From: Saprospiraceae bacterium
GTDB taxonomy: Bacteria; Bacteroidota; Bacteroidia; Chitinophagales; Saprospiraceae
DNA length: 64,000 nt
Direction of reading: 5' to 3'
Assembly (NCBI GenBank): GCA_041744755.1
Contig: JBGTKC010000087.1
Span: 2,600-66,599 of the forward strand
The position numbers were made by a program, and so were the translations under genes. The notes below the pieces were generated by a model. The model saw only the letters and a program-made list of their open reading frames with translations, did not search any database and was not told the DNA's origin. Below are positions 104-56,553 of this stretch, in pieces (position 1 is the first letter of the stretch; every line of letters begins with the position of its first letter).

Positions 104-1282
104 TCAGTGTCCCTGGCCGTCGAGCCCCGGTACGGCTCGGTAGACGCTGTCGCGAACGAGGCCGTCGGCTTCGACGAGTTCCAGGTTCATGTTGGGTTCG
201 CCGGCGTCGACCCAGGCCGTGTACCAGGCCGAGCCCACCGACCGGATCGCCGTGCGGAACCTCTCCTCCACCATGCCGTCCAGGCGGTCGCTGTACATGC
301 GCGCGAATCGCGCGCACGGGACGCGCACGATTGCCCCGAGGCGCTCCTCGTAGCACTCCTGCTGGTCCTCCGGGACGAGGCGTCGCAGATCGGCTTCGAT
401 GAGTAACACGCTGTCCACCAGGTCGTGGCTCTCCGCAATAAGGTCGCGGTACCAGGCTGTCGGGTCCTTGATGTAGCGCGCGCGGCCGACGAGTACATCG
501 TACTCTGCCTCGGCGAAGAGCTCCGGGAGGCGGCTCTCCCAAAAGGCATGAATCCCGCGCTGGCCCGTCAGCTGGCCGTTGTAGTTCTCCGTGGTGTGGA
601 GCGGGACGGTCGCATCGCCGATGTAGTGGCCGATCTCCGCGCTCAGCTGAATAGCCAGTCGGATGTCGTTTTGCCGGAAGGCGTTCGTGAGGCGGCGCTG
701 CATCTGCACGAGGTGGTAAGGCAGGACTCCGTGGCGTGTCATGGTATCTACCACGCGCAGGTAGTCGCAACGTGCTTCCGCAAGCGGGAGCGCCACGTGG
801 AGCGTGTCCTTCTCGTAGGGGTGCGCCCACTGCACGTAGCGCTGGTACCAGCGGGCGTAGTCGCCTTTCGGCAAAACGTAGGTCTCCTCACCGACGAACA
901 GCGCTTCGCTCGCTGCGCGGACCTCCGCACTGTCGCGACCACGGACGCACAGGAGCGTAGTGTACTCCTCGTGGAACTGCCAAAACTCCCACGGTAGTCC
1001 TTCTACCGTCCCATCCCCGTAGCGCTCGACGTCGATAAAGTGACGGGCGCCTTCGAGACGCGCCGCGTAGCGGCGTTTGTCGGGATCGACGGCGTGCGCG
1101 CTGATGAAGCTGCTGTACGTTTTGTAAAACTTCGCAAGGGGCGCAGGTACCGTGTACACGGCCAACCGGTTGATCTCGCGGTGAGCGTAGAATCCCCACG
1201 TTGCGCCGACGCTGATACACGCGGCGGCGAGCGCCATCGCACACAGCGCAAACGACCGCGTTGTGATTGACTTCGCGGTCAC
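104..1282 (-). CDS. S1/P1-type zinc nuclease family protein, secreted
   Basis: Signal peptide, then a mature N-terminus TWGFYAH (the W..H zinc ligands of the S1/P1 family). Also has HYIGDATVPLH and IHAFWES motifs. Likely GTG start at 1282, overlapping the upstream stop as GTGA; an alternative ATG lies at 1237. Confidence 0.72.
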   Translation of the reverse strand: MTAKSITTRSFALCAMALAAACISVGATWGFYAHREINRLAVYTVPAPLAKFYKTYSSFISAHAVDPDKRRYAARLEGARHFIDVERYGDGTVEGLPWEFWQFHEEYTTLLCVRGRDSAEVRAASEALFVGEETYVLPKGDYARWYQRYVQWAHPYEKDTLHVALPLAEARCDYLRVVDTMTRHGVLPYHLVQMQRRLTNAFRQNDIRLAIQLSAEIGHYIGDATVPLHTTENYNGQLTGQRGIHAFWESRLPELFAEAEYDVLVGRARYIKDPTAWYRDLIAESHDLVDSVLLIEADLRRLVPEDQQECYEERLGAIVRVPCARFARMYSDRLDGMVEERFRTAIRSVGSAWYTAWVDAGEPNMNLELVEADGLVRDSVYRAVPGLDGQGH

Positions 1283-2277: not shown

Positions 2278-2282
2278 ATCGC

Positions 2283-3977: not shown

Positions 3978-4705
3978 CGCTGCGTCCGATTGATGACCAC
4001 GACGGAGGCGTAGAGGAACCAGCCCGCCACGGTCGCGAAGTAAACCACGTCACTAAGCACGACGAGCCCGCGTGAGATACTGCGGTAGTGGGCCTCGATG
4101 CCTAGGAGCTGCACGAAGTTGTCGTAGCGCCCCACGAAGACCGGCAGCCGACTTAGGTAGTCGAACCCCTGGTAGACCACGAAGCACAGCAATGCCGCGA
4201 GCACGAAGCCGACGATCTGGTTTTGCGAAAGCGTACTGGCGAAAACCCCGATCGCACAGAAGATGCCCGCCAGCGCTAGCAGCCCAAGGTACGAGCCCGC
4301 GATGGCACCGCTGTCGAGGTTGCCCTTTGGGCTCCCGAGCTCGTGAACCGTGTAGTAGTATATCAGCGTGGGGACGAGCGCGAGCGCCGCGAGCGCCCAG
4401 CACGCGAGGAATTTACCGACCACGATTTGCGGGGTGGTGACGGGTTGGGTTAGGAGCAGCTCGAGCGTGCGCTGCTGGCGCTCCTCGGCGAGGGTGCGCA
4501 TGGTGATGGCGGGGATCAGGAATAGAAACACCCAGGGGGCGATGTCGAAGAGCTGATCGAGGCTCGCAAAATTGAAGTTGATCAGGCTGGTATCCGGAAA
4601 CACGAACATGACAAGGCCCAGCAACACCAAGAAGACCCCGATGACGAGGTAGCCTATGAGCCCGCTGAGGAACGCACTAAATTCGCGCCAGAAGATACTC
4701 ACCAT
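3974..4705 (-). CDS. gldF: Gliding-motility-associated ABC transporter permease GldF
   Basis: 243-aa polytopic ABC-2 type permease lying between gldA and gldG. TGATG overlap with gldA. Confidence 0.85.
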   Translation of the reverse strand: MVSIFWREFSAFLSGLIGYLVIGVFLVLLGLVMFVFPDTSLINFNFASLDQLFDIAPWVFLFLIPAITMRTLAEERQQRTLELLLTQPVTTPQIVVGKFLACWALAALALVPTLIYYYTVHELGSPKGNLDSGAIAGSYLGLLALAGIFCAIGVFASTLSQNQIVGFVLAALLCFVVYQGFDYLSRLPVFVGRYDNFVQLLGIEAHYRSISRGLVVLSDVVYFATVAGWFLYASVVVINRTQR

Positions 4706-6754: not shown

Positions 6755-8004
6755 GCACCTTGGACGCCGACGTCATCGTCATCGGGGCCGGCGCGGCAGG
6801 ACTGGTCGCCGCACTGGCTCTGCGGAAAAAAGGGCTCACGCCGCTCGTGGTCGACTCCGCCGGTCACGTGGGTGGGCGCCTCGCCACCACCCACGAAGAC
6901 GGCTTCACGTTCGATCACGGCTTCCAGGTGCTACAGACCGCTTACCCCACCGTGCGGCGGTGGCTGGACCTCGACTCGTTGGAGGTAGAAGCCTTCGAGC
7001 CCGGGGCCGAAGTGTTCTTGCCAAAGGGCAGGCGAAGTCTGCTGTCCGATCCCCTCCGCCGGCCTCGACACCTGCTGTCTAGCCTTCTGTCCCCGGTGGC
7101 GACATTGGGGGACAAGTTGCTTACGCTAAAACTCGTCGCGTACCTGCGAACCCATAGCTCAGAGCGGATATTTGCGCTGCCTGAAGTGAGTACCTACGAG
7201 TTCCTCCGCGATTACGGATATAGTCAAAACTATATCGACAATTTCTTTCGACCGTTCTACGGCGGGATCTTTCTGGAACGAAATCTCGAGTCTTCGAGCC
7301 GGCTCTTCCTTTTTACGTTCAAGATGTTTGCCGAGGGGCAGGCGGTTTTGCCGAAAGGCGGAATCCAGGCCGTGGGCGAGCAGCTCGCGGATTCACTCGG
7401 GCGAGCGCACGTGAGCCTCGACAGCGAAGTGGTTGCTATCGATCAGAACGCCGTAACCCTTGCGGGAGGCCGCCGTCTGCTGGGCCGCGCAGTCATCGAC
7501 ACGCGACCTAGCAGGCGAGATTTGGCTACAGGATGGAAGTCGACAGTAGTGGTCTACCTCGAGGCCGGTATCCACTCACTGCGTCCGCGCACCTTGGGAC
7601 TCGTGCCGGGAGGGTGTCCCGTCGGGATCATCACCGACCTGAGTGAAGTTCAGGCGAGTTATGCGCCTTCCGGCAAAACACTCCTCTCGGCCTCGCTCCA
7701 AGCGCCGCTGGGGCGGTCATTTGAATTTTACGTTGAAGAGGTCCGCAAGTCGATGGCACCGTGGTTGCGCGAGGAGATGGCTACTTGGCGCCCACTGCGG
7801 CACGTCGAAGTCGCGATGGCCCTGCCCGGGGGCCAACACGTGAGGTGGGAGGTCGCGCCGGCAGCTTTAATTCGGGAGGGAACTGTAATGGCTGGGGATG
7901 CGACCCTTGCCCCCAGCCTTCACCACGCGATGCGCTCCGGCGAATTGGCCGCGGAAGCCGTTTGCGAGCTCTTAGCTCACCGGACCGCCCTTCATCAGGT
8001 TTAG
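6751..8004 (+). CDS. NAD(P)/FAD-dependent oxidoreductase (amine-oxidase/PPOX-like)
   Basis: N-terminal dinucleotide fold DVIVIGAGAAGLVAALALRKKG. TTG start overlaps the upstream TGA. Confidence 0.72.
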   Translation: MSTLDADVIVIGAGAAGLVAALALRKKGLTPLVVDSAGHVGGRLATTHEDGFTFDHGFQVLQTAYPTVRRWLDLDSLEVEAFEPGAEVFLPKGRRSLLSDPLRRPRHLLSSLLSPVATLGDKLLTLKLVAYLRTHSSERIFALPEVSTYEFLRDYGYSQNYIDNFFRPFYGGIFLERNLESSSRLFLFTFKMFAEGQAVLPKGGIQAVGEQLADSLGRAHVSLDSEVVAIDQNAVTLAGGRRLLGRAVIDTRPSRRDLATGWKSTVVVYLEAGIHSLRPRTLGLVPGGCPVGIITDLSEVQASYAPSGKTLLSASLQAPLGRSFEFYVEEVRKSMAPWLREEMATWRPLRHVEVAMALPGGQHVRWEVAPAALIREGTVMAGDATLAPSLHHAMRSGELAAEAVCELLAHRTALHQV

Positions 8005-17225: not shown

Positions 17226-17999
17226 TTAACGTAGTCCCCACGCCGCTAGTGCCGCGACGGCGGCGGTTTCGCTGCGCAATCGTCGTGCGCCGAGGGAGAC
17301 GCCCGCGAAGCCGACCCTCTCGGCCGCCTCGACCTCCTGCACGGTAAAGTCTCCCTCGGGACCGATGAGGAGATGGAGGTGAGGCACGGTGTGCAGGCCG
17401 CTGCCTAAAGGTGCGGGCGCTGCAAGCGGTCCGAAAGCCATGCGCCTTGGCTCCGTGTAGCAGTGTGCTATGACGCGTAACTCCTCGGGGGCTAGCAGTG
17501 GATTCGTCTGTTTTGGCGAAGGTCCCGCGGTCAATTCGCGAATGAGGTCGGCGAACGACACTTCCGCAATCAGTGGCAGGTAGGCACCCCCCGACTGCTT
17601 CATGGCGGCAACGGCCTTAGCCTCCAGGCGTCCGATTTTGTAGCGACTCGGCTGTACGCGGTCCGTGAGGACCAAGTCGATGCGGGTGGCGCCGAGTTCG
17701 ACCGCCTTCTCGACGAGCCACTCGAGCCGCGAACTGTCGTGCAGGAGCCCCACCGAGAGTCTCGTCGTCGCCGGTCTTTCCTCCTGCGCGCGTTCGAGGA
17801 CCTGCGTGACCATACCGGAGCGTTTGAGCCCGATAATCTGCCCCGCGTATCGCCCGCCGCTCCCGTCGACCCACTGGATCCCGTCTCCCTCGCGGAGCCG
17901 CAACACTTTTGTGGCGTGGTTGGTCTCCTCGGGCGAGAACGTGAAGCGCGCGTTATCGCGGTCGGCACTTCCGTAAAACCAGTGATCGGGGAGCTTCAT
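17226..17999 (-). CDS. rsmE: 16S rRNA (uracil1498-N3)-methyltransferase
   Basis: MKLPDHWFY...ETNHATKVLRLREGD (PUA-like N-terminus) and a C-terminal SPOUT knot IGPEGDFT...LGARRLRSETA. ATG at 17999. Confidence 0.9.
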   Translation of the reverse strand: MKLPDHWFYGSADRDNARFTFSPEETNHATKVLRLREGDGIQWVDGSGGRYAGQIIGLKRSGMVTQVLERAQEERPATTRLSVGLLHDSSRLEWLVEKAVELGATRIDLVLTDRVQPSRYKIGRLEAKAVAAMKQSGGAYLPLIAEVSFADLIRELTAGPSPKQTNPLLAPEELRVIAHCYTEPRRMAFGPLAAPAPLGSGLHTVPHLHLLIGPEGDFTVQEVEAAERVGFAGVSLGARRLRSETAAVAALAAWGLR

Positions 18000-22010: not shown

Positions 22011-22025
22011 ATTTTGGCGAAAGCC
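22011..22025 (+). repeat. Copy of over-represented word GTTTTGGCGAAAGCC (14/15: ATTTTGGCGAAAGCC)
   Basis: Intergenic, between the convergent rimM and ybbR-like stops. Confidence 0.9.
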
Positions 22026-23361: not shown

Positions 23362-23880
23362 TTACTCGGCGGCGTCGACGGTGCCGACGAGCTGCAGTTG
23401 TGTAGTGTTTGGGTAGGTGTTGGCCGTCAGCGTGATCACTTTGAGCTGGGGGCCGGTCTTGCCTCGGGTGTCGAATCTCACGCCGACACTAGCGGTGTCG
23501 CCCGGGGGAATCGGCTCGCGGGGCCACGCAGGCACTGTGCAGCCGCAGGTACTGGAGGCGTGAGTGATGATGAGGGGTCGCTTGCCGGCGTTGCGGAACG
23601 TAAATCGGCGAGTCACTACCATACCTTCGTCGACGGCCCCGAACTCGTAACGGCTTTCGCCAAAACTGATTCTCGGGATCCCGACAGTGTCCAGGCTGCC
23701 GTCGCCACTGATGGGTACGCGCACGATACCAGTAGTAGCGACGGCCGCACTCCCGGACGGAACCCCGGGCTCGTCCACCCCACCCCGGCACGAGCTGCCG
23801 ATCACGCCCGCGAGCATTGCCGCGAACACTAGAGAAAGCTTGGTCCTTTCTTTGCGAAGCATTTTAAGCGTCTCGATCAC
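23362..23880 (-). CDS. DUF1573 domain protein
   Basis: FGAVDEG...FTFRNAGKRPLIITHASSTCGCTVPAWP is the DUF1573 core. The start may be the internal Met at 23862. Confidence 0.8.
   Translation of the reverse strand: MIETLKMLRKERTKLSLVFAAMLAGVIGSSCRGGVDEPGVPSGSAAVATTGIVRVPISGDGSLDTVGIPRISFGESRYEFGAVDEGMVVTRRFTFRNAGKRPLIITHASSTCGCTVPAWPREPIPPGDTASVGVRFDTRGKTGPQLKVITLTANTYPNTTQLQLVGTVDAAE
23652..23666 (-). repeat. Exact copy of GTTTTGGCGAAAGCC
   Basis: Plus strand reads GGCTTTCGCCAAAAC. Inside the DUF1573 CDS, on the mRNA-sense strand. Encodes FGES. Confidence 0.9.
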
Positions 23881-24408: not shown

Positions 24409-24451
24409 TGCGCAGGCTAGTAGGCTGTCGCCAAAACGAGTCTCAAAAGGG

Positions 24452-36748: not shown

Positions 36749-38032
36749 TTAGTCTACGTTGAGTCCGAGGTACTGCGTCCAGCGGCTCTCGCGCCAGACG
36801 CCCCCGGTGAAGGTACCGACCGGGACACCTACCAGTGGCACGCCGGCGGCACAGAGGTTTACCCCCATGCCCGCGAGCGAGCGCTTGGGCATAGTGAACG
36901 GTTGATCGGGCAGGAAAAAAGTGAGTTCGGCATTTGCACCGTCTCGGATCGAGATGGGCGTAAACCCGGCGAGCCGTCGATTAGCCACCGCTAAATAGTA
37001 CAAGACATCCTCTGCCTCGCCCATCGCCGTCCGCGCGATCGCAAAGGTTTGCTCGATTGTCGCCGCGCCAAAGGCGGCGTACGGGAACTCCACGCGCTTT
37101 GACTCCATGTCCTGCGGGCGGTGATTGCTCACTAGCGCATCTGCCGAACGTGAGGCCACTGCGTCCCTGAGGGCATTACGGTCCGCGGAAGACCGCAAGG
37201 GGGGCCAGAGTTTCGCGTCGGGATCGTAGTCCCGCAGGGCGGTATCGTCCAACAAAAGGTGCGCAACCGCCAAGCCGTAGCTGAGTCCGGGGTGGAGGGT
37301 TTTGGCGAAAGCCGCCTGTCGGACCGTCTCCGCCAGGGTCAAAACCGGCACGTGGAGTCTGCCGCCGCGGTAGTCCAGCAGCGCGAGATCCCGCTGCAAC
37401 CCAATCACCTCCGCCATTGCGGGCAGTCCGACGACCCCGAGCATCGTACTCACGAGCCCCTCGTGCATCTGTCCTTGGCCCTCGAGGCGGCGCTCGCCCG
37501 GCTGCGCCACCACGGTTGCGTCGAACGCTTGGGTATACGCGAGGGCGAGCTGGAGGAGCTTCGCATCTTGAACGGCCCTGAGACCATCGCCAAAGAACGT
37601 ACACCCTGCCTCGACCAGCTCTCCGATCTCGGACAGCTGGTGGCCCTCGCCCCCGCGGCTCAATGCGCCGATGAGGTGGAGGCTTACGCCAAAACGCTGA
37701 TCGGCCAGCGCGAGCACGCCTCTTGCCGCAGTGCCGGTGTCGAGCGTCGGCACGGTGTCGGCGTAGGCGAGGACGCGGGTAAAGCCCCCGGTGGATGCCG
37801 CGGCGAGGAAGGCGTTCAGCGTCTCCCTCTGCTCGTGCCCGGGTTCGTGCACGGCGGCCCCCACGTCTACCCAGCCCGCCGAAACATGGAGTCCGGGGAA
37901 AGCAAGAGTACGGACGCCTGCGGGACGCGACTCAGGATTTAGGGTCACGCGACCGCCGTCGACCAGCAAATCCACCGTCTTTCCGTGGTGCTCGCCGTCG
38001 GGATCGTAGACCGTGACTGAGGTAAAGAGCAT
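36749..38032 (-). CDS. Dihydroorotase-like cyclic amidohydrolase (paralog of pyrC)
   Basis: 427 aa from ATG 38032. GWVDVGAAVHEPGHEQRETL...GGFT aligns with the pyrC N-terminal metal region. Amidohydrolase fold throughout. Confidence 0.75.
   Translation of the reverse strand: MLFTSVTVYDPDGEHHGKTVDLLVDGGRVTLNPESRPAGVRTLAFPGLHVSAGWVDVGAAVHEPGHEQRETLNAFLAAASTGGFTRVLAYADTVPTLDTGTAARGVLALADQRFGVSLHLIGALSRGGEGHQLSEIGELVEAGCTFFGDGLRAVQDAKLLQLALAYTQAFDATVVAQPGERRLEGQGQMHEGLVSTMLGVVGLPAMAEVIGLQRDLALLDYRGGRLHVPVLTLAETVRQAAFAKTLHPGLSYGLAVAHLLLDDTALRDYDPDAKLWPPLRSSADRNALRDAVASRSADALVSNHRPQDMESKRVEFPYAAFGAATIEQTFAIARTAMGEAEDVLYYLAVANRRLAGFTPISIRDGANAELTFFLPDQPFTMPKRSLAGMGVNLCAAGVPLVGVPVGTFTGGVWRESRWTQYLGLNVD
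37299..37313 (+). repeat. Exact copy of GTTTTGGCGAAAGCC
   Basis: Inside the DHOase-like CDS, antisense. The gene reads AFAKT. Confidence 0.9.
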
Positions 38033-38085: not shown

Positions 38086-40137
38086 TTATACACCGCGGGG
38101 TGGGATCGCGGTCGCGGTGGCGTTCGGGCGCCAGAAGCGGAGAACGAGCGCCTCGGCGATAAGCGCGAGCAGCGCGAGCGCGACGAGGGTCGGCCACCAC
38201 GGCTTCCCGAGGGCGCCCGCCCCAAGTCCAGCCTGTAGGCCCGCAGCCGAATCTCCGTCGTAAACGCTCAACCCAGCCTCAGCGAGCGCGGCGGCAGAGT
38301 GGAAGCTCATCGGACTCTCGGCCCGACTGTAGTTGAATCCCAGTACGGCCAACGTGGAATCGGCGGGGTCGATCAGGGCGAAGTGCCCTGCGCGCGTCGG
38401 GGTCTGCCCGAAGGATACGGTGGCGACGCTGCCGAGGGTCCGCTGGGGGGGGACGAAACTCTCCTGTCCGGAACGTAGCGTGAGGGCGCCCTCGCCCACG
38501 CTCGCAACCGGAACTTCGAAGGCGCCGACCTGCCCTATCGTATAGGCGATCGCCCGCGCGGCGCCCCCAGAGTAAGCCATGCGGTAAAGCATCGGCACGA
38601 ATATCTCCGCGGACCTCGCGAAGTCACTTACGTCGGCATCTAGTGGCGCAGCACTCAGGTACGCGATCCCTCGACCAGCGGCGCTCCCGACGACGAAGGG
38701 CGAACCGTCGCGAAACGAGAGCAGCGTCTCATCCCCTGCGCCCCCGATGTTGAAGCGGAGTTTGCTCTGCGGGAGGCGCATATTGTCCGGTAGGCGGTCG
38801 AACACCTCAGCGAAGACGAAAGACCGAGTGTTGACGCGTCCCCCCACGAACTCACCGGTTTCAGGGCTGCGCAATGGAGGTAGCCCGAGCGCTGCGAGGA
38901 GCGGGCCGTACCCAGTCCCAGGTGCCGCGGCCGCGGCAGACGGGAAGATCATGACTTTCCCCCCCAGCTCCACGGCCTCCCCGAGGGCTTGCACCAGGCC
39001 GCTGGGTAGTTGCGCGACGCCGTCGAGGATCACCAGGTCGTAGCTACGCAACTGGCTATAGTTCACGTTGGAGCTCCGCTCCGTCGAAAGCGCCACAGTG
39101 CCATCGGGCGGGAAGGCGGCACGCAACTGCGCGCGCGCCTCAGCGTCGGAGATCACGAGGGCGCGGAGGCGGTCGCGGACCTCGAACGCGATGTAGTAGC
39201 GGTCGTCGAACTCAATCGGGAAGTCGGTGATGGCGATCTCTGCGCGGACCCAGCCCGCGCGTGCGACCGAGAGGATCAGCGTGTCGCTGACCGTCGCACC
39301 GGCCGGGACCCTTCTGAGGCCAAAGGGCTGCGCGCTGCCGTCGATCACGGCGCTGAGCTTGACGGCCTCAGCGTCCTCGGTCCCGTGATTCGTCATCTCG
39401 ACCACGATGGCAACGGGCTCGCCGAGCAGCTGGAGCGGACTCAAGAGATAAGCCGAGTCAATACTCAAGTTGCGCAGCTCTAAGGCCGCGATCGGTAGCG
39501 CGGCCACGGATCGCATGGTGTCGGAGGTGAATATCGAGAGATCGAACTGCGTGCGCTGGAAATCCGAAATTAGGTAGGTGGGCGTGTATTCGTCGATAGT
39601 TCCGTCGCGAGGCATGGTTCGAGACAGGAGCTGGGCGCCGGTCTGGGGGCTTACGCCAAAACCTATCCCCTCCACTGCGGCCAGGGCGTCCTCGCGCCCG
39701 TACCACCTGGTAGAAGCGCCGTCGAGGTCGTTGGTGACGAGCCGAAACTCCGTTGCCTCGCCGTAGGCCCGGATAATGTCGCGCGCTCGCTGTTTTGCCT
39801 TATCGAGTAAGGTGACCTCGGAGGTGCGAGCCGACATACTCTGGCTATTGTCGACGACGATGTTGATGCGCGGCGGGGCCACGGCCTCCGAGCCATTAGC
39901 GGCCACGAATGGCTGCGCGAAGGCGACGACGAGGGCGGCGAACGCCAGTAGTCGCAGTGAGAGCACCAATAGGTTCCTGATCCGTGAGCGCCGCTGGGTC
40001 TCGTCACGGACCTCGGTCAAGAAGCGTACGTTGCTGAACTCCACGCGTTTGAACCTCCGGAAGTAGAACAGGTGGACCAAGATCGGGACCGCCAGGGCGG
40101 CGAGCGCCCAGAGGATGGCCGGTGACAACAGTTGCAT
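38086..40137 (-). CDS. BatA-N domain (double-TM N-terminus) protein
   Basis: MQLLSPAILWALAALAVPILVHLFYFRRFKRVEFSNVRFL is the aerotolerance-regulator N-terminal signature. C-terminal TM. 683 aa. Confidence 0.8.
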   Translation of the reverse strand: MQLLSPAILWALAALAVPILVHLFYFRRFKRVEFSNVRFLTEVRDETQRRSRIRNLLVLSLRLLAFAALVVAFAQPFVAANGSEAVAPPRINIVVDNSQSMSARTSEVTLLDKAKQRARDIIRAYGEATEFRLVTNDLDGASTRWYGREDALAAVEGIGFGVSPQTGAQLLSRTMPRDGTIDEYTPTYLISDFQRTQFDLSIFTSDTMRSVAALPIAALELRNLSIDSAYLLSPLQLLGEPVAIVVEMTNHGTEDAEAVKLSAVIDGSAQPFGLRRVPAGATVSDTLILSVARAGWVRAEIAITDFPIEFDDRYYIAFEVRDRLRALVISDAEARAQLRAAFPPDGTVALSTERSSNVNYSQLRSYDLVILDGVAQLPSGLVQALGEAVELGGKVMIFPSAAAAAPGTGYGPLLAALGLPPLRSPETGEFVGGRVNTRSFVFAEVFDRLPDNMRLPQSKLRFNIGGAGDETLLSFRDGSPFVVGSAAGRGIAYLSAAPLDADVSDFARSAEIFVPMLYRMAYSGGAARAIAYTIGQVGAFEVPVASVGEGALTLRSGQESFVPPQRTLGSVATVSFGQTPTRAGHFALIDPADSTLAVLGFNYSRAESPMSFHSAAALAEAGLSVYDGDSAAGLQAGLGAGALGKPWWPTLVALALLALIAEALVLRFWRPNATATAIPPRGV

Positions 40138-42596: not shown

Positions 42597-44030
42597 TTGC
42601 ACTCCTTCGCATCCGAAGTCATTGATGCCCCGGGCGTCTTCGCCCCCGAGGGAGGTCCGGCAGCGCCGAGGCGCAGTCGAGGTGAGCTCATCCGCAGTGG
42701 CCTCTACGCCATGGGCGACCGCGTAGCCGCGCTCGTCTTCGGGTTTGGCTCAATGTGGATGCTTACGCGGATGACGTCCGTGCCCCTGTTCGGGGTGTGG
42801 GTCTTCTTCCAGGGTTTCGTCGCCACGGTGGAGGTGGCGAGGAGTGGACTTATCCAGAATGCGCTAATTCGGTACCTGACGACGACAGTAGGTTCGGAGC
42901 ACGGTCGGATCTACGGAGGGGCATGGTTGCTCAATGGCGTGATTGCGCTAATTGGTGCGGCCGTCCTTTGGTTCGCAGGTGACGGGCTGGAGGTTTGGCT
43001 GCACTACGATGGCCTAGGGCTGCTTACGAAAATCTATGCGGTTACCTTCCTCGCCACCACGCCTATGTGGCAATACAACTACCTCCAGCAGTCCCACCTA
43101 GAGTTCCGGGGGCCTTTCTGGACTACTGTCCTACGGTACAGCACGATGTTCGTTTTGACGGCGGCTATGTATTTCGGCTACTACGAAGTCGATCTCGACG
43201 CGTTGGCCGTCCTCACTACCCTCGCCTACGGACAGCTCGTGGCCGCGACCCTCGGCGCCGCAATTTCGTACGCCTACGCGCGGGAGTTTTTGCCGGAAGG
43301 CGTAACCCTCGACTGGACTTGGGCGCGCAAGCTCATTGACTACGGCAAATACGTGTTCGGGACCAACCTGAGCTCCATGCTCTACAAGCAGGTCGACACC
43401 GCCATGCTGGGGGCCTTGCTCGCGAGTGCTAGCCCCGCAGCCATCTACGGGCTCGCCATCCGGATCACGAGCTTCGTCGACGTCCCGACGCTCGCGGTCG
43501 CCTCGATCGTGTTCCCCGAATCTTCGCGCGCCAGTGCCGACGGGGGGCCGAATGCGCAGGCGCGGATGTACGAACGCGCGGTGGCCGGCATCCTATCGCT
43601 GACATTACCGGCGCTGGTGCTGGTGGGGTTGCTGCCGGGTCTGCTCGTGTCGATAGCCGGCGGCGACAAATATGCCGCATCGATCCCCGTGCTTCAGGTC
43701 ACGGTGTTATTTAGCTTATTTATCCCTTTCGCCAATCAATTCGGTACGCTGTTGGATGCCTCCGGGGCGCCGGAGCTCAATTTTCGCTACACATTGGCGG
43801 GAATGTTGCTGAATGTCGTGTTTAACTACCTGTTCATCTCCAATATGGGCGTTATCGGCGCGCCGCTCGGGACTTTGGCCACGTACGTGGTGATGTTCGC
43901 GTTCATGCAACGGCTCCTAAATAAGCGTTTTGGCGTAAGCCTCACCAACGTCGCCCGTGCGCTGCCGGCGACGTACGCCAGCCTCTTCGCGTTCGCGCGC
44001 CAAAAGCTCAAACTCCAACCCCAGCCATGA
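42597..44030 (+). CDS. Oligosaccharide flippase (MOP/Wzx family)
   Basis: 477 aa, about 12 TM. TTG start immediately after the wzc-like stop. Confidence 0.72.
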   Translation: MHSFASEVIDAPGVFAPEGGPAAPRRSRGELIRSGLYAMGDRVAALVFGFGSMWMLTRMTSVPLFGVWVFFQGFVATVEVARSGLIQNALIRYLTTTVGSEHGRIYGGAWLLNGVIALIGAAVLWFAGDGLEVWLHYDGLGLLTKIYAVTFLATTPMWQYNYLQQSHLEFRGPFWTTVLRYSTMFVLTAAMYFGYYEVDLDALAVLTTLAYGQLVAATLGAAISYAYAREFLPEGVTLDWTWARKLIDYGKYVFGTNLSSMLYKQVDTAMLGALLASASPAAIYGLAIRITSFVDVPTLAVASIVFPESSRASADGGPNAQARMYERAVAGILSLTLPALVLVGLLPGLLVSIAGGDKYAASIPVLQVTVLFSLFIPFANQFGTLLDASGAPELNFRYTLAGMLLNVVFNYLFISNMGVIGAPLGTLATYVVMFAFMQRLLNKRFGVSLTNVARALPATYASLFAFARQKLKLQPQP

Positions 44031-49967: not shown

Positions 49968-52466
49968 CTACTCTTTGGCCACGAAGACCGCCGCCGGGCT
50001 CACGGCAAGCATCTCGCTCACGGCCGAGACGGTCGCAAAGTCGACCGTCCGCGCGGAGAGTGCGTCGACGCGCTCGCCCAGGATCGGTAAGGAGATTTCG
50101 GCACCCACAAAGTCGTCACCCTGTGGCCACCTCTTCGAGGCATCCGAGCGGATCGACACGATCACCAGGGCCTGGTCGTCACCGAACACCCGGCGGAACG
50201 CCACCACGCGCCCGTCGCCACCGGTAACGTCCACCGGCACGTAACTGCCCAGCAACCAGAGCGCAGGGTCGTCACGGCGTAAGTTAAGTAATGCGTGCAG
50301 CAGCCCTTGCTTCGCCCGGTCGAACTCGAACGAGCCCGCCGCCTCGTCCACCGCCGAGAAAGCCCGCCAAGGGTCCGTGCGCGCGAGGCTCACCAGACTC
50401 AGTTGCCGCGCGGGGTAGTCGACCGGACGGCGGTTGTCGGGGTCCACTAGTGAGTAGTCGCCGTACTCAGCGCCCTGGTAAACATCCGGTGAGCCCGGGG
50501 CGGTGCAACGGAGGACGAGGCCCCGGATCGCGTTCAGGCTCGCCTGCGCGCTGATGCCCTCGTCGTAGCGCTGGAGCGCCGCCACGAATGTTGCGTCGGC
50601 GAGCCATCCTCGCACGACTCTGTCGCACCGCTGTTCGAGCGATGTATTCGGGTCCTCCCAACTGCTGTGTCGTTTGCCTTCCCTGAGGGCCTTTTCGGCA
50701 AAACTCGCCATGCGCGTCGCAAAGCCGCTGTCACCGTTGCCTGCGTCTGCCATGCGGCTCGGCCACGCGCCGAGTAGTGACTGCAGTAGCAGCAGGAAGG
50801 TATCCCCCGGGAGGGGCTCCCCTGCGGGCAGGCGGTCGTAGGCCGTTTTGGCGAAAGCCGTCCAGGACGCCGGATCTGCGCTCAGGGCGTGCAATCTCGC
50901 GCGCGCATCCTCCCCGCGCTTGGTGTCGTGGGTCGACCCCGCGTTAAGTTCGGTCGGCGCCCGCTCGACCATGCGGTCGTGCCAACCCTCTACCGAGAGG
51001 GCGTATGCGATGTCGGGGTTGTCGCCGACCTCGTTGCTCGCAAGGTAGTCGACGTGCTGGTAAAAGGTCGTGTCCTCGATCCCCTTGGCCATCAGCGGGC
51101 CACTAAGCTGCATCGCGCGCTGGAGAAACGTCGCGGTCCGGTCGTCGAGACGCGTGATGCTCCGCAGCCAAGAGCGAAGCCGCTGGAGGCCATCGGTCTG
51201 CACCGCACCAAGCGCTACCGCGCGATCTATCGCGTGGACGAGCAGCGACCTGTCGCTTTCGCTAAAACTTCCGAACCGCACGTAGGCCCGGTATACCGGA
51301 AATCCGGCGAGCCACTCGGCGACGGTCTCGCGGAGGAGTGGCTGGTCCATGCCGAGCGGCAGGCCCGCGAGAGCGCCCTGGGCATGGTGCACTAGATTTT
51401 CGAGCTCCCCCGCCATACTGGCGCGGAGGAACCGTAGCTTGTTGCCGAACACCTGTAGGTCGACCGGTAGCTCGCTGCCGCCGATGTGCTCGGTGAAGTG
51501 GCGGGCGGTGGCGGTCACGGCAGCGTGGCCCGCGGGGTGGCGGAGCAATTGATTGACGTGAGCCATGAAATCGTAGCCGCTGCTACCTTCAATCGGCCAC
51601 TCTTGCGGGAGAGTCTCGCCGTGTTCCAGGATTTTTTCGACGACGATGTACGGCTCCGGACCGACGGCCTCGCGGAGGCGCTTTAGGTATCCTGTTGGGT
51701 CGAGCAGGCCGTCGATGTGGTCGATGCGGACCCCGTCGATATCGCCTCTCCCCAGCCACTCGATAATGAGCTCGTGGGTCGCCGCGAAAGTTTCCGGACG
51801 CTCGGCGCGTAGGCAGATGAGTCCGTTAACGGTGAAGAAGCGGCGGTAGTTGATTGTGCTATTCGTCGTCTTCCAAAAGGTAAGGGCGTAGTGTTGTGCG
51901 TCGAGGACGTCAGCAAGCTTAGCCGATTGCAGATCTGGAAATTTCCCTAAACTGCGTGAGCTCAAGGGCAAAACCTGGTCGTACACCTGGATGCCATCCG
52001 CCTGTGGCGTGAGTGCCACTTGTCCGGCAGCGATTACCTCGGTGAGCTCATCCCCGAGGATCGGCAACATAACGCGACCGCGGAAGTCGGGATGCCGCCA
52101 GTCTATGTCGAAGTGCTTGGCCGCCGTGGAGGCCTCGCCGTGGGTCAGGATCTCCCGCACCCACGGATTCTCTAGGCTATAGGCCATGTGGTTGGGCACA
52201 ATATCCTGGAGCCAGCCCATCCCGAGGGCCCGGCGATGCTCGTGCAGCGCCCGCCACTCGGCCTCGGTGCCGAGCTCGGGGTTGAGGCGCGAGGGGTCGA
52301 TCTGGTCGTAGCCGTGCGTGCTGCCGGCGGTGGCAGCCAGTACGGGACTCGCGTATATCCAGTCGATGCCGAGGGCATGCAGGTACTCGAGCTGCTGGTG
52401 GAGTTGTTGGATCTTGAAGCCCACGTGTAACTGGACGCGGTAAGTGCTTAAGGGCTGTTTGGTCAT
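49968..52466 (-). CDS. treY: Malto-oligosyltrehalose synthase
   Basis: 832 aa. STYRVQLHVGF...YASPVL start and DGVRIDHIDGL motif. Confidence 0.95.
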   Translation of the reverse strand: MTKQPLSTYRVQLHVGFKIQQLHQQLEYLHALGIDWIYASPVLAATAGSTHGYDQIDPSRLNPELGTEAEWRALHEHRRALGMGWLQDIVPNHMAYSLENPWVREILTHGEASTAAKHFDIDWRHPDFRGRVMLPILGDELTEVIAAGQVALTPQADGIQVYDQVLPLSSRSLGKFPDLQSAKLADVLDAQHYALTFWKTTNSTINYRRFFTVNGLICLRAERPETFAATHELIIEWLGRGDIDGVRIDHIDGLLDPTGYLKRLREAVGPEPYIVVEKILEHGETLPQEWPIEGSSGYDFMAHVNQLLRHPAGHAAVTATARHFTEHIGGSELPVDLQVFGNKLRFLRASMAGELENLVHHAQGALAGLPLGMDQPLLRETVAEWLAGFPVYRAYVRFGSFSESDRSLLVHAIDRAVALGAVQTDGLQRLRSWLRSITRLDDRTATFLQRAMQLSGPLMAKGIEDTTFYQHVDYLASNEVGDNPDIAYALSVEGWHDRMVERAPTELNAGSTHDTKRGEDARARLHALSADPASWTAFAKTAYDRLPAGEPLPGDTFLLLLQSLLGAWPSRMADAGNGDSGFATRMASFAEKALREGKRHSSWEDPNTSLEQRCDRVVRGWLADATFVAALQRYDEGISAQASLNAIRGLVLRCTAPGSPDVYQGAEYGDYSLVDPDNRRPVDYPARQLSLVSLARTDPWRAFSAVDEAAGSFEFDRAKQGLLHALLNLRRDDPALWLLGSYVPVDVTGGDGRVVAFRRVFGDDQALVIVSIRSDASKRWPQGDDFVGAEISLPILGERVDALSARTVDFATVSAVSEMLAVSPAAVFVAKE
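50845..50859 (+). repeat. Exact copy of GTTTTGGCGAAAGCC
   Basis: Inside treY, antisense. The gene reads AFAKT. Confidence 0.9.
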
Positions 52467-54289: not shown

Positions 54290-56553
54290 GGTTTCGTCGA
54301 CTTTACCTGCTCGAGCCAGGGCCGACCCTCTGTCCTGGAGCTGGGGACCCGCTCGCGGAGAAAGGCCACCACGGAGCGCGAACTGAGCGTGAAGGTCTCC
54401 TGCGCGGGGACGGGTACCTCCTGGGGGAAGAGGCCTCGACTCGTGTCCACGACGCATCGCCAGGCGGTGACCTCGGGGTTGCCCGGGAGCGTGAACTCAG
54501 CGTCTTCCCAGTGGGAGTTGAAACCCAGGAACCAGATGTCGTCCTTGATCGGCATCCCGCGTTCGTTCATCTCGGCGAGGGCTTCGCCGTTGAGGACGAT
54601 ACCGAGGACGCGGGAGTCGGGGTCGGTCCAAAAGTTGTCGCCTACCTCGCGTCCGTCCGCGCCGATCCAGTAAATATCCGAGCGTTTGTCGCTGGACACC
54701 GTACGACCGCTGAAGAAGCGCCGTCGGTGAAGTACGAGATTGTTGCGGCGCACTTCGATCAGGGTTTTGACGAAAGTCCGCAGTCCGACCTGCTCGGGCG
54801 TCCAATTCCACTTGAAGTAAGCTAATTCATTGTCCTGACAGTAGACATTGTTGTTGCCGAGCTGCGTGCGGCCGACCTCGTCGCCGTACGTAATCATCGG
54901 CACGCCCTGGCTGAGCAGCAAGGTCGCGAAGAAGTTGCGTTGCTGCTGGAGACGCAGCGCGTTGACCTCCGCATTCTCCGTCGGACCCTCGATGCCGCAG
55001 TTCCAACTCTCGTTATGGGATTCACCGTCATTGTTGTTCTCGCCGTTCGCCCCGTTGCGTTTGGCGTTATAGCTCACGAGGTCCCGCATTGTGAAACCAT
55101 CGTGCGCGGTGACGAAGTTGATACTCGACCAGGGCTGTCGCCCGCCGGCCTCGTAGAGGTCGCTCGAACCCGTAAGCCGGTACGCCAGTTCGGGTAGCTT
55201 GCCGTCGTCGCCCCTCCAGTACTGCCGGACGTTGTCGCGGTACTTACCGTTCCACTCGGACCAAAGCACCGGGAAATTACCAACTTGGTAGCCCCCCGGA
55301 CCGACATCCCAGGGTTCGGCGATAAGCTTTACCTGCGAGATAATCGGGTCCTGGTGAATAGTATCGAGGAAGGTGGATAGCTTACCGACCTCGAAGAGTC
55401 CGCGCGCCAGGGCCGAAGCGAGGTCGAAGCGGAACCCGTCGACGTGCATCTCCGTGACCCAGTACCGCAACGAGTCCATCACGAGTTGCAGCACGCGAGG
55501 GTGGAGCATATTCAGGGTGTTACCCGTGCCGGTGTAGTCCATGTAGAACTGCTCATTGCCTTCGACGAGCCGGTAATACGCTTGGTTGTCTATTCCCTTG
55601 AACGACAGCGTCGGGCCGTAGTGGTTGCCTTCGGCCGTGTGGTTGTACACCACGTCGAGGATCACCTCGAGGCCCGCTGCGTGGTAGGCCTTCACCATCT
55701 GCTTGAACTCCTTGACCTGGTGACCAGGCTCTTTGTCGGCGGCGTACTCGCTGTGGGGTGCGAAGAAGCCGAGGGAATTGTAGCCCCAGAAATTGCGCAG
55801 CCCTCTATCGACCAAGATCTGGTCGTGCACGAAGTGGTGCACCGGCATTAGCTCGATGGCCGTCACCCCGAGGTCGACGAAGTACGCGATCACCTCCGGG
55901 CACGCCAGCCCGGCGTAGGTGCCGCGTAGCGCCTCCGGTATCCTGTCGCAGAGCGCGGTCATACCCTTGACGTGCAGTTCGTAGATGATCGTCTCGTGCA
56001 TCGGGGTCTCGGGCAAGAGGTCACCGTCCCAGTTGAAGCCCGGGTCGACGATCACGCTCTTGTTTGCGAACGGGGCCGAGTCCGACTCCTCCATCGACAG
56101 GTAGCGCGTCTTGCTCAGATCCGATAGCGGATAGCCGAACATGGCCGGCGACCAGTCGATCGGCCCGTCGATGGCCTTGGCGTATGGATCCAACAGTAGC
56201 ATGTTCGGATTGAACAGCTGTCCGTGCACGGGGTCCCACTCGCCGTATACCCTGTAGCCGTAAAGCATTCCGGGCCGGATCCCGGGCAAGAAAATGTGGT
56301 AGACCTGATCGGTCCGCTCGATCATCGTGAAGCGGATCGCCTCCTCTCGTGGGCTGTCCGGATAGAAGAGGCACAGCTCGATGACGGTCGCATTCTCCGA
56401 GAAGATCGAGAAGTTAGTGCCTTTCTGTGAGTAGCTGGCCCCGAGCGGATAAGGGCGCCCCGGCCAGGGGATCAGTGAGTTGAGGAGTTGCGGGGAGAGG
56501 TGTTCGGGGGGCGTCACCGTTGCCCCTCCCGGCGGAGCTTGCGTATTAATCAT
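54286..56553 (-). CDS. glgX: Glycogen debranching enzyme GlgX/TreX (copy 2)
   Basis: 755 aa from ATG 56553, with the same GH13 motifs as copy 1. The track ORF extension to 56802 runs antisense through tRNA-Leu, so I reject it. Confidence 0.95.
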   Translation of the reverse strand: MINTQAPPGGATVTPPEHLSPQLLNSLIPWPGRPYPLGASYSQKGTNFSIFSENATVIELCLFYPDSPREEAIRFTMIERTDQVYHIFLPGIRPGMLYGYRVYGEWDPVHGQLFNPNMLLLDPYAKAIDGPIDWSPAMFGYPLSDLSKTRYLSMEESDSAPFANKSVIVDPGFNWDGDLLPETPMHETIIYELHVKGMTALCDRIPEALRGTYAGLACPEVIAYFVDLGVTAIELMPVHHFVHDQILVDRGLRNFWGYNSLGFFAPHSEYAADKEPGHQVKEFKQMVKAYHAAGLEVILDVVYNHTAEGNHYGPTLSFKGIDNQAYYRLVEGNEQFYMDYTGTGNTLNMLHPRVLQLVMDSLRYWVTEMHVDGFRFDLASALARGLFEVGKLSTFLDTIHQDPIISQVKLIAEPWDVGPGGYQVGNFPVLWSEWNGKYRDNVRQYWRGDDGKLPELAYRLTGSSDLYEAGGRQPWSSINFVTAHDGFTMRDLVSYNAKRNGANGENNNDGESHNESWNCGIEGPTENAEVNALRLQQQRNFFATLLLSQGVPMITYGDEVGRTQLGNNNVYCQDNELAYFKWNWTPEQVGLRTFVKTLIEVRRNNLVLHRRRFFSGRTVSSDKRSDIYWIGADGREVGDNFWTDPDSRVLGIVLNGEALAEMNERGMPIKDDIWFLGFNSHWEDAEFTLPGNPEVTAWRCVVDTSRGLFPQEVPVPAQETFTLSSRSVVAFLRERVPSSRTEGRPWLEQVKSTKP

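Follow-up and report, generated by a model that had tools for sequence, protein, structure and literature searches.

A pairing-constrained 15-base word within the genes of an uncultured Saprospiraceae clade, possibly read on single-stranded DNA

About once in every 2 kb, the window (the whole 64,000-nt stretch of DNA analysed) carries a DNA word of 15 bases, made up of a GTTTT tail and a minute, highly stable hairpin. The word constitutes a genomic signal at the DNA level that is specific to its clade, constrained in structure and located inside genes, and in it the invariant 5'-GTTTT tail leads into a mini-hairpin of the G-rich strand with a GNNA loop; the outer pair is usually G:C, the middle pair is any Watson-Crick pair and the closing C:G is nearly invariant. 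The variation of the stem in matched pairs suggests that an uncultured Saprospiraceae clade uses a previously undescribed signal, read from DNA in single-stranded form; a description of the element was not found in the literature searched. Our preferred explanation, held tentatively (probability of about 0.4), is a structured tag, read on single-stranded DNA, that would work as sequences for DNA uptake or self-recognition do.

Copies of the word in the window

The exact word GTTTTGGCGAAAGCC occurs 10 times in the window, five times per strand, where dinucleotide shuffles give an expectation of 0.00; this confirms the repeat described by the sequence-only reading, whose listed coordinates were all re-checked. 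The pattern GTTTTGNCNNNNGNC gave 27 matches (0.48 expected), with G..C at positions 7/14 in 17, C..G in six, A..T in three and G..T in one; no other mismatch at 7/14 was present among these 27. The strict form of the element (GTTTT-N-N-C-GNNA-G-N'-N) is present 33 times in the window, and its edges are sharp at 15 nt. Extrapolation from the density gives an estimate of several thousand copies per chromosome. The sites are the following (position-6 base missing in the variant at 4220):

668..682 (+): element GTTTTGCCGGAAGGC, middle pair C:G, loop GGAA; C:G orthologue in L268, L269, L270, L272
863..877 (-): element GTTTTGCCGAAAGGC, C:G; kept in L269; in L268 GCT-GAAA-AGC, closing pair switched to T:A
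4220..4232 (+): shorter variant GTTTT-GCGAAAGC, 2-bp stem; conserved in 6/6 aligned genomes
7118..7132 (-): element GTTTTAGCGTAAGCA, middle pair G:C, outer A/A unpaired; pattern match
7345..7359 (+): element GTTTTGCCGAAAGGC, C:G; orthologues in L268, L269, L270
7665..7679 (-): element GTTTTGCCGGAAGGC, C:G; orthologues in L268, L269
11939..11953 (-): decayed element GTTTTGGCGAATGCC, loop GAAT; exact word in L268 and L269
13058..13072 (-): tail-mismatch element ATTTTGCCGAAAGGC, C:G; orthologues with GTTTT in L268, L269, L270
13699..13713 (+): element GTTTTGGCGCAAGCT, outer G:T (G6:T15), loop GCAA; orthologues in L268-L270
17112..17126 (-): element GTTTTAGCGCAAGCG; pattern match
17510..17524 (+): decayed element GTTTTGGCGAAGGTC, G7:T14, loop GAAG; exact in L268 and L269
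20775..20789 (+): element GTTTTGGCGACAGCC, loop GACA; pattern match
22011..22025 (+): tail-mismatch element ATTTTGGCGAAAGCC; pattern match
22752..22766 (+): element GTTTTGACGCAAGTC, A:T; pattern match
23652..23666 (-): exact word GTTTTGGCGAAAGCC; exact match
24423..24437 (-): element GTTTTGGCGACAGCC, loop GACA; pattern match
27624..27638 (+): tail-mismatch element ATTTTGGCGGAAGCC, loop GGAA, ATTTT tail, in leuS; GTTTTGGCGGAAGCC in L024
28056..28070 (-): element GTTTTTGCGTAAGCT, in leuS; identical in L024
29763..29777 (-): element GTTTTCGCGTAAGCG, in leuS; CGC-GAAA-GCA in L024, CCC-GAAA-GGA in L112; also in L272
29844..29858 (+): exact word, in leuS; exact in L024, L112, L272 despite diverged flanks
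32306..32320 (+): element GTTTTAGCGTAAGCA; identical in L024
32523..32537 (-): exact word; loop GGAA in L024
34167..34181 (-): exact word; exact in L024
37299..37313 (+): exact word; exact match
37681..37695 (-): element GTTTTGGCGTAAGCC, loop GTAA; pattern match
39648..39662 (-): element GTTTTGGCGTAAGCC, loop GTAA; pattern match
43287..43301 (+): tail-mismatch element TTTTTGCCGGAAGGC, C:G, specific to the source lineage; pattern match and alignment
43927..43941 (+): element GTTTTGGCGTAAGCC, loop GTAA; identical in L192, L193, L195
44788..44802 (-): exact word; kept in L192, L193
46238..46252 (+): element GTTTTGCCGGCAGGC, C:G, loop GGCA; identical in L192, L193
47342..47356 (-): element GTTTTGGCGTCAGCC, specific to the source lineage; pattern match and alignment
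50689..50704 (-): five-base-loop variant GTTTTGCC-GAAAA-GGC; orthology judged from similar flanks, no alignment
50845..50859 (+): exact word, in treY; exact in 5/5 aligned genomes
51254..51268 (-): element GTTTTAGCGAAAGCG; kept in L192, L193
54217..54231 (-): element GTTTTGACGTAAGTC, A:T; GTTTTGGCGTAAGCC in L195, an in-place A:T / G:C switch
54764..54778 (+): element GTTTTGACGAAAGTC, A:T; identical in L192, L193
57623..57637 (+): exact word; exact match
58090..58104 (-): tail-mismatch element GGTTTGGCGAAAGCC; GTTTTGGCGACAGCC in L192 and L193
60204..60218 (-): element GTTTTGGCGGCAGCG; kept in L193
61870..61884 (-): exact word; exact in L193
62343..62357 (+): element GTTTTGGCGAAAGCA; pattern match
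63713..63727 (+): exact word; exact match

The stem and loop variants picked out by eye were mostly borne out. Among the swaps of the middle pair to C:G, those at 7345(+), 863(-) and 668(+) stand, 13058(-) ATTTTGCCGAAAGGC and 43287(+) TTTTTGCCGGAAGGC are C:G with one tail mismatch each, and 7665(-) and 46238(+) had been overlooked; the A:T swaps at 54764(+) and 22752(+) are real, with 54217(-) missing from the list. The G:T wobbles are G6:T15 at 13699 and G7:T14 at 17510 (a decayed site with exact orthologues). The loop changes GTAA (37681, 39648, 43927), GCAA (13699) and GACA (20775, 24423) were all verified; the GGAA site placed at 27634 starts at 27624, with the tail ATTTT.

Pairing in the stem and class of the loop

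An unbiased enumeration fixing just GTTTT, C8, the loop G..A and G13, with 7/14 left free, found 7:14 paired in 33/33 matches in the window, in 125/126 in unseeded clade DNA (266 kb) and, as Watson-Crick pairs, in 359/365 in all clade DNA (659 kb; ranking G:C > C:G > A:T > T:A); the control (1.12 Mb from other Bacteroidota) gave six matches, none of them paired at 7:14. Non-complementary combinations, which the sequence-only reading had named as the outcome that would count against it, are thus clearly not as common as complementary ones. Over 147 loosely anchored sites the pair was GC in 83, CG in 39, AU in 8 and UA in 2, with a covariation score of 0.472 versus 0.139 for shuffles (0/500 as high). 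In-place compensatory double switches are present at orthologous sites, including one from G:C to C:G at 29763..29777(-) (L024 versus L112). The proposal that double substitutions restoring pairing reveal a constrained fold therefore holds: the data support a folded single strand as the constrained form, with the G-rich strand as the relevant one.

With the stem left free, the loop-closing pair was C:G in 126/147 anchored matches, the exceptions including paired G:C (three) and T:A (one). Clean covariation is limited to the middle pair 7:14, and the outer pair (6:15) is relaxed, with 132 G:C, 21 G:T and many mismatches besides. This outer pair accepts G:T far more readily than A:C; outer G:C accompanies a weaker middle pair (85% versus 65%, Fisher p = 1.6e-4), the relaxation occurring mainly where the core is the optimal GCGNNAGC (same test). 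Both features indicate that pairing energetics matter. The variant with a five-base loop at 50689 also retains its stem, and sites with similar flanks in L192, L193, L194 or L195 read GCC-GAGAA-GGC at two loci and GCC-GATAA-GGC at one.

These observations bear on a site read on duplex DNA by a protein that organises the nucleoid or chromosome, in which a matched 7:14 would be two identical half-sites GNC...GN'C. GGC....GCC, GCC....GGC and GAC....GTC are indeed interrupted palindromes, and HIP1, an intragenic, conserved, hyper-abundant word, has been linked to nucleoid structure (PMC5861425). However, the element is strongly asymmetric (one-sided GTTTT tail, GNNA spacer), a dimer tolerating any middle base need not demand the same base in both half-sites, and the energetics and the stem of the five-base-loop variant argue for a fold, making a duplex site unlikely.

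The loops were GAAA in 144 cases, GGAA in 27, GCAA in 20, GACA in 13 and GTAA in 11, giving the consensus G-N-(A/C)-A (GNCA n=18, GNGA n=1); they are GNNA rather than the narrower GNRA. The sequence-only reading was right in naming the mini-hairpin d(GCGAAAGC) of Hirao and co-workers, and published rules for its stability require a closing C:G pair and accept GC-GC or CC-GG stems and GBAA and GABA loops (PMC13037366), matching the variant spectrum of the element in its near-invariant closing pair and GNNA loops. The DNA form of d(GCGAAAGC) melts at 76.5 °C versus 39 °C for the RNA form, and the 12-mer CGGCGAAAGCCG, which contains GGCGAAAGCC, at 89 °C (PMC13037366). The loop bias (GAAA far above the others, GNCA above GNGA) is unexplained by the published melting temperatures alone. 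Since the constraint falls on pairing and mini-hairpin stability, the tail alone being base-specific, the probable reader is a protein that recognises the junction of tail and hairpin on the G-rich strand in its single-stranded state.

Clade range, conservation and gene context

In an incomplete genome scan, the exact word was multi-copy only in Saprospiraceae and Lewinellaceae MAGs. Lineages whose SecDF is 62-100% identical carry 0.35-0.6 elements per kb, and a Saprospiraceae genome at 52% SecDF identity carries none; no paired elements were found in 1.1 Mb of other Bacteroidota. The same word is maintained across genomes of 47-68% G+C, position 15 often being T in low-G+C lineages (a minor 'dialect' shift). 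Close relatives retain 5/8 to 8/9 (63-89%) of the window's sites, with identities at orthologous sites of 0.86-0.94 for the element versus 0.66-0.73 for the flanks; distant relatives retain 0-37% and carry their own elements at similar density. Gains occurred mostly without indels, by substitution, in variable regions. The element is a clade-specific signal, stable at orthologous sites and turning over by point substitution.

Hairpin template switching can yield matched double substitutions without selection, and hyper-abundant words were formerly attributed to biased repair. A functionless by-product of mutation or repair bias (for example, template-switch quasi-palindrome correction plus biased repair) would nevertheless leave unexplained why the tail is invariant, why the loop is GNNA and the boundaries are sharp at 15 nt, why element identity exceeds flank identity and why a single word persists across such different G+C contents, and we consider it improbable.

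About 92% of the elements lie within ORFs, and the genes concerned are ordinary or housekeeping ones; the orientation is that of the gene in 99 cases and opposite in 95; all six reading frames are used, the choice of frame following codon tolerance. On the complete OZ244050 chromosome, 47 elements are on the plus and 52 on the minus strand, mixed in every block. With all six frames in use and no transcribed-strand or chromosomal bias, the element is not an RNA motif, a protein motif or a polar word of the Chi kind; it acts at the DNA level, so that of the 'ssDNA or RNA' originally proposed only the single strand of DNA stands. Clade-wide range, intragenic location and orthologous-site conservation are additions to the sequence-only reading.

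An RNA hairpin with a GNRA tetraloop in transcripts, or a recurrent peptide motif, might have been suggested by the GAAA, GCAA, GGAA and GTAA loops and by the recurring AFAKT and VLAKA peptides; the orientation and frame counts in effect rule out both. The GNCA to GNGA ratio, the lack of any matching Rfam family and the far lower stability of r(GCGAAAGC) than of the DNA form (PMC13037366) also count against them.

A miniature REP-like mobile element, spread by RAYT or another HUH-type enzyme reading a 5' tag and hairpin, would share a tag-then-hairpin ssDNA design with the GTAG-tagged REPs bound by TnpA-REP (PMC3479197, PMC8266576, PMC3733652). It is very improbable for an element of merely 15 nt with a 3-bp stem, 92% intragenic in all frames, with no REPIN-like inverted pairs, no transposase gene in the 64-kb window and lineage-specific copies that mostly replace sequence without an indel.

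An intracellular ssDNA signal for chromosome maintenance, Chi-like or ssi-like and selected for density, could keep SSB off the strand, block an exonuclease or serve as the loading site of a recombination or restart factor. Mini-hairpins are nuclease-resistant and bind SSB poorly, the priming origin of phage G4 contains CGGCGAAAGCCG, and the RepB' primase reads the 5' tail and first pair of a mini-hairpin-capped hairpin (PMC13037366); strong conservation at orthologous sites would fit per-site selection. Lagging-strand priming, Chi and KOPS-type functions predict a polarity, however, and none was found with replication (47 vs 52) or transcription (99 vs 95), which leaves this possibility rather doubtful.

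A possible uptake tag and its relation to known systems

According to the uptake-tag explanation, which is speculative in its mechanism, tagged DNA would be preferentially taken up, protected or recombined in natural transformation or an equivalent homologous exchange, in which either strand could be the single-stranded intermediate, and the balance between mutation, drive and selection would let the tag build up across the genome wherever proteins tolerate it. An intracellular function under selection could account equally well for the conservation at orthologous sites. To our knowledge, natural transformation has not been documented for this uncultured clade, and we know of no DUS or USS that requires a hairpin; ComP binds DUS in duplex form, so an uptake signal read as a hairpin would have no precedent. 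Duplex DNA is unlikely to extrude a cruciform of 3 bp, and recognition would therefore have to follow strand separation, a stage at which known uptake specificity does not act.

Like the element, DUS (Neisseriaceae) and USS (Pasteurellaceae) are short words present about once per 1-2 kb, in both orientations without replication polarity, limited to a single clade of family rank in which minor 'dialect' shifts occur, intragenic in codon-tolerated frames, and comparable in dynamics, with some positions conserved between relatives and turnover elsewhere (PMC2817400, PMC3630211). The proportion within ORFs (about 92%, versus 34-65% for known uptake sequences; PMC2817400) counts against the uptake reading. 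The element has no sequence similarity to known uptake sequences (the CTG core and AAGTGCGGT are absent from it), lacks terminator-like inverted pairs, and has a covarying internal pair and a structured loop, of which we are aware in neither DUS nor USS.

HIP1 (GCGATCGC, cyanobacteria) is likewise hyper-abundant, conserved in ORFs beyond coding need, and neither a peptide nor an RNA motif (PMC5861425); its function, long unknown, is now being linked to transformation, according to a preprint (bioRxiv 10.1101/2024.09.10.611283). HIP1 forms a perfect palindrome of 8 bp that methyltransferases recognise, whereas the element is 15 nt, asymmetric and constrained in pairing rather than in fixed bases. 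With the mini-hairpin d(GCGNNAGC) the element core shares the C:G closing pair, the GC/CC second pair and GNNA loops with GAAA best (PMC13037366), but the known natural mini-hairpins are single phage or plasmid priming or promoter sites, not genome-wide, intragenic and GTTTT-coupled. REP elements (RAYT/TnpA-REP) are also dispersed, ssDNA-read hairpins with a short conserved 5' tag and stem covariation; they are mobile, measure 20-40 nt, lie outside genes and often form inverted pairs, unlike the intragenic, 15-nt, single, substitution-born element. Chi/KOPS-type words are similarly over-represented on the chromosome, some being read on ssDNA, but are strongly skewed with replication direction, whereas the element is unskewed. 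In the genome the element behaves as DNA uptake sequences or HIP1 do, with a structural constraint that those lack.

Abundance and distribution of the word

The exact word GTTTTGGCGAAAGCC, 15 nt long with a GTTTT tail (positions 1-5), three stem pairs (outer 6:15, middle 7:14, closing 8:13) and a loop (positions 9-12), occurs in 10 copies in the 64-kb window, five on the plus and five on the minus strand, where dinucleotide-preserving shuffles expect 0.00. The degenerate pattern GTTTTGNCNNNNGNC has 27 matches versus 0.48 expected, and the combinations at positions 7 and 14 among them are G..C (17), C..G (6), A..T (3) and G..T (1), with no other mismatch. The recurrence of a word of this type, proposed in the sequence-only reading, is confirmed by these counts. 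Nearly all the coordinates of that reading also held; the exceptions were 13058 and 43287, whose tails differ by one base, and the GGAA site, which starts at 27624. Variant sites at 7665, 46238 and 54217 were absent from its list.

The window is a chromosome segment of 62% G+C with ordinary housekeeping genes (including secDF, leuS, gldG, treXYZ, glgX, purK, purE, pyrF, mnmA and rimM), together with genes for capsule and O-antigen and with four tRNAs. In its annotation, no genes for mobile elements, phages or competence were found, and genes of the housekeeping kind only were present in the window and in the loci fetched from relatives. Its SecDF is 84% identical to the SecDF of the Lewinellaceae MAG CAWIMC01 and of the Saprospiraceae MAG OZ244050.1. 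In a scan with one genome per species, MAGs of Saprospiraceae and Lewinellaceae alone had more than one copy of the exact word among the matches listed, and other taxa among those matches had single copies, in line with chance. The clade is sampled only through MAGs. Element density was 0.35-0.6 per kb in six lineages. The median spacing between neighbours is 1.5 kb. The consensus was unchanged across lineages of 47% to 68% G+C, indicating that the element is not a compositional effect.

A viral or mobile origin was rejected: 72 contigs of the IMG/VR collection carry the word, 71 of them as single copies at chance level, and only one has three elements (GTTTTGCCGAAAGGT, GTTTTGGCGAAAGCC and GTTTTGGCGTAAGCT). 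This contig (IMGVR_UViG_3300009415_000016, 7.5 kb, 46% G+C) may be a prophage or a host fragment from a low-G+C Saprospiraceae lineage. Another outlying case is L194, a fairly close relative (ENA ERZ23499052 scaffold_1165; TreY 72% identical), where 16 kb contain just two elements (0.12 per kb) and seven of eight window sites have decayed. This lineage may have lost whatever maintains the word; if so, it would be a natural knock-out for comparative genomics. The genome GCA_016715985 is free of elements.

Pairing, loop and tail

The enumeration of sites fixed only GTTTT, C8, the loop G...A and G13. The middle pair was Watson-Crick in 359 of 365 sites (98.4%) in 659 kb of clade DNA, in 125 of 126 sites from 266 kb of clade DNA not fetched via the word, and in all 33 window sites; the pooled clade counts include orthologous copies of one site, and single-genome counts such as that of the window are free of this effect. 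The pair types, by frequency, were G:C > C:G > A:T > T:A, and the unrelated flanks rule out that the sites are copies of each other. In a set of 147 sites anchored by the tail and the loop G..A only (GC 83, CG 39, AU 8, UA 2), the 7:14 covariation score was 0.472 versus 0.139 for shuffles, none of 500 shuffles scoring as high; in the control of 1.12 Mb from other Bacteroidota there were six pattern matches, none of them paired at 7:14. The unbiased enumeration and the covariation analysis, both suggested by the sequence-only reading, bear out its claim that a folded single strand is selected: the pairing is conserved, not the bases. Chance and composition were rejected as the source of the word, given shuffles with 0-0.5 copies, an absolute expectation of ~1e-9 per site under a codon-usage model and a control (1.1 Mb) without a paired match.

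The other two pairs behave differently. The closing pair is C:G in 126 of the 147 loosely anchored sites, and the exceptions include paired G:C (3) and T:A (1). The outer pair is loose (G:C 132, G:T 21, assorted mismatches), and its G:C form is found in 85% of the elements with a non-G:C middle pair versus 65% of the G:C class (Fisher p = 1.6e-4), a trade-off expected if a stability threshold must be met. A third covarying pair at 6:15 was not supported, since sites with a non-G position 6 are Watson-Crick no more commonly than expected. Position 15 is C in four of 44 sites where position 6 is not G and in 132 of 163 where it is; the non-G sites are mostly not Watson-Crick (A..G 9, T..T 7, A..A 4).

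When the loop was left free at paired sites, six types (GAAA 144, GGAA 27, GCAA 20, GACA 13, GTAA 11, GGCA 4) made up 219 of about 236. The loops had been described as GNRA or GNNA; the wider GNNA rule stands and the GNRA rule does not, GNCA occurring 18 times versus once for GNGA. A 3-bp stem closed by C:G over a GNNA loop occurs 510 times in 369 kb. GTTTT directly precedes 197 of these hairpins, a count inflated by the ~60% of that DNA that comes from blocks retrieved through the exact word; every other 5-mer stands before four of them at most. Information content falls sharply beyond positions 1-15. Directly 3' of the element, at position 16, A is depleted (5 of 88, versus 44 for G); an A there would pair with T5 and lengthen the stem into the tail, and its depletion may be a constraint keeping the tail single-stranded or a codon effect.

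The word is a clade-wide 15-nt DNA signal composed of a base-specific tail and a hairpin, in which the determinants of pairing and stability are conserved and not the bases themselves. Its pairing and loop rules match, as far as sequence comparison goes, those derived by experiment for the DNA mini-hairpin GCGNNAGC, which requires C:G as its loop-closing pair (Kimoto and Hirao 2026, PMC13037366). In that system, stems may be GC-GC (Tm 76.5 C) or CC-GG (Tm 65 C) but not CG-CG or GG-CC; a GBAA or GABA loop costs just 4-5 degrees; the RNA version has a Tm of 39 C; and CGGCGAAAGCCG has a Tm of 89 C and binds SSB poorly (PMC13037366). The nearest-neighbour fold of the element is -2.3 kcal/mol, identical for both strands, and is uninformative, as the special stability of GNNA mini-hairpins is not part of the model, a shortcoming also stated in the review (PMC13037366). 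The element would be the first known evidence of cellular genome-scale use of mini-hairpins. To our knowledge, mini-hairpins have natural roles at only a few sites, in phages and plasmids.

Genes, strands and evolution of the sites

The 210 paired sites of the window and two relatives occupy all six reading frames, 194 of them inside confident ORFs, with the G-rich strand sense in 99 and antisense in 95. The encoded peptides change with the frame (VLAKA, AFAKT, FGES, GFRQN, LSPK); frame use tracks the simple codon-usage model, and the Trp/CGA frame is avoided. The word shows how far such a signal can reshape protein sequences, and we know of no earlier case of a covarying hairpin running through all six frames of coding sequence. 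In 15 blocks sampled around the complete OZ244050.1 chromosome, there were 47 plus and 52 minus copies, intermixed in every block, and no Rfam family matched at any element. The six frames, equal orientations, mixed strands and lack of an Rfam match indicate that this is not a peptide, transcript or replication-polar element. A protein motif was rejected on the frames and differing peptides, an RNA element on the transcript orientations, the Rfam result and loops that are not GNRA, and a replication-polar word (Chi, KOPS) on the mixing of strands round the chromosome; an RNA or peptide motif is, in consequence, scarcely credible. The fold had been ascribed to ssDNA or RNA, and only the DNA half of that proposal survives. 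A terminator or inverted-pair layout was also rejected, given the spacing, the single pair of neighbours less than 120 nt apart and the T-run on the wrong side of the hairpin.

Other features were observed in and near these genes:
Window 31553-31567: GTTGTGCCGAAAGGT, within tRNA-Ser (31511-31598), in the putative variable arm; it resembles the hairpin, has no tail and is not an element.
Window 32286-34037: two long, overlapping opposite-strand ORFs, both Pfam-supported (methyltransferase on the minus strand, Smr on the plus strand).
Contig CAWIMC010000013.1 of a Lewinellaceae MAG, 1495-2760 and 4971-6450: dense arrays of a palindromic GGCGCGTTCGACTCGCTCTGCGAGTGCGCC-like unit at ~36-54 nt spacing, whose 15-mer core occurs 21 times, in both orientations; the arrays look like extragenic clusters of REP or BIME-type repeats, with no relation to the 15-nt word.

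Syntenic alignments were made for leuS (with L024 and L112), treY (L192-L195) and secDF (L268-L272), all of them clade relatives, and elements occupy orthologous positions in the three regions. In close relatives, element identity is 0.86-0.94 versus 0.66-0.73 for the flanks, and 5/8 to 8/9 of the window sites (63-89%) are retained; distant members retain 0-37% and have their own elements at a similar density (0.35-0.6 per kb). A strong directional force maintains the word. In variable regions, copies specific to one lineage are mostly aligned, gap-free, with sequence that looks unrelated, indicating that elements arise by substitution and not by insertion. A REP-like mini-element, by which the copies would have spread as small repeats, is very improbable in view of these gap-free alignments and of the location of most sites in ORFs; a by-product of mutation, which would put the origin of the word in the mutational process itself, is only slightly less so.

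The pairing switches in place: the window site 29763 is G:C and its L112 orthologue C:G; 54217 is A:T in the window and G:C in L195; one treY-region site is G:C in L192 and A:T in L193; and in L268 the closing pair changed from C:G to T:A at one site. Stem class is also inherited, the four C:G elements of the first 8 kb of the window being C:G in relatives too. This stretch (668-7679) has no exact consensus copy. Clustering of the classes in 8-kb blocks was marginal (p = 0.053), and the proposal that the C:G and A:T classes are foreign dialects acquired by transfer was rejected on this value and on their inheritance; their presence at orthologous sites shows them to be old resident variants. 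A five-base-loop variant, GCC-GANAA-GGC, lies at window 50690 and, with similar flanks, in three relatives, flanks by which these sites would be orthologous. At window 4220-4232, inside an ABC-2 permease gene, GTTTT-GCGAAAGC is one base shorter, with a 2-bp stem right after the tail, and is kept in six of six aligned genomes; it is either a minimal functional form or a protein-constrained look-alike.

Proposed role and comparison with known systems

We infer that the element is read as single-stranded DNA at the tail-hairpin junction. The sites of the RepB' primase and of the N4 virion RNA polymerase are read in this way (PMC13037366), as are those of HUH enzymes (PMC3479197). The lack of polarity with respect to replication and transcription argues against lagging-strand, Chi-like and transcription-coupled roles, and points either to duplex binding or to a process in which each of the two strands can serve as the single-stranded intermediate. 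The genomic behaviour, like that of DUS/USS and HIP1, favours a self-DNA tag, and at a probability of about 0.38 the element would mark self-DNA, act in transformation or homologous exchange and be recognised after strand separation. The main rival, a non-polar ssDNA maintenance signal inside the cell, is rather unlikely; a duplex-binding nucleoid site is improbable.

Hyper-abundant words, among them USS, DUS, Chi, KOPS and HIP1, are uncommon, and each has brought a basic DNA transaction to light. Beyond these, the present word has near-perfect DNA-level covariation inside protein-coding genes, obeying mini-hairpin biophysics. It has a little under an even chance of being a new class of signal, an ssDNA structural code with a tail and a freely changing paired stem, in thousands of coding-sequence copies clade-wide, read by a putative ssDNA-binding machine; the principle of recognition itself has a substantial chance of being categorically new. 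If this were true and the reader acted in uptake or recombination, the word would be the first sequence for uptake or self-recognition to be recognised through its fold and not as duplex sequence. No description of the word, or of an uptake-like sequence in this group, was found in the searchable literature, and a literature search on k-mer discovery of new uptake sequences gave nothing relevant. The word suggests that a Bacteroidota clade common in the environment possesses a system for recognising self-DNA or for handling ssDNA, one absent from the papers found. The word offers testable handles (defined 15-mers, compensatory mutants, natural low-density lineages) and a practical marker for binning and foreign-DNA detection in these genomes.

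Table. The element compared with known systems.
DUS/USS, shared: hyper-abundant, clade-restricted, both orientations (element 0.35-0.6 per kb; 47 plus/52 minus); intragenic in codon-tolerated frames (frame use tracks the codon model); turnover of positions at steady density (63-89% kept in close, 0-37% in distant relatives); small dialect drift (PMC2817400, PMC3630211).
DUS/USS, different: DUS dialects have a CTG core (PMC3630211); by direct reading, neither this nor the USS core is in GTTTTGGCGAAAGCC.
HIP1: similar genomic behaviour; HIP1-like words are perfect palindromes and methyltransferase targets, whereas the tail on one side and the GNNA loop make the element asymmetric.
REP/RAYT: extragenic, insertions and inverted REPIN pairs; element 194/210 in confident ORFs, mostly gap-free, one pair <120 nt.
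Chi/KOPS: strand skew with replication; element mixed in 15 blocks (OZ244050.1), window exact copies 5/5.
Structured GNRA RNA: transcription-aligned, GNRA rule, known family; element 99 versus 95, GNCA 18/GNGA 1, no Rfam match.
Mini-hairpin GCGNNAGC, shared: C:G closing and second G:C or C:G pair (element 8:13 C:G 126/147; 7:14 G:C 83, C:G 39); GNNA loop with G...A sheared pair (219 of about 236 loops in six such types).

HIP1 has lately been tied to transformation efficiency (PMC5861425; bioRxiv 10.1101/2024.09.10.611283). By their defining features, the element is outside the DUS, USS, REP, Chi and HIP1 families; it resembles the uptake-sequence and HIP kind in its genomic behaviour, and the Hirao mini-hairpin in its physics.
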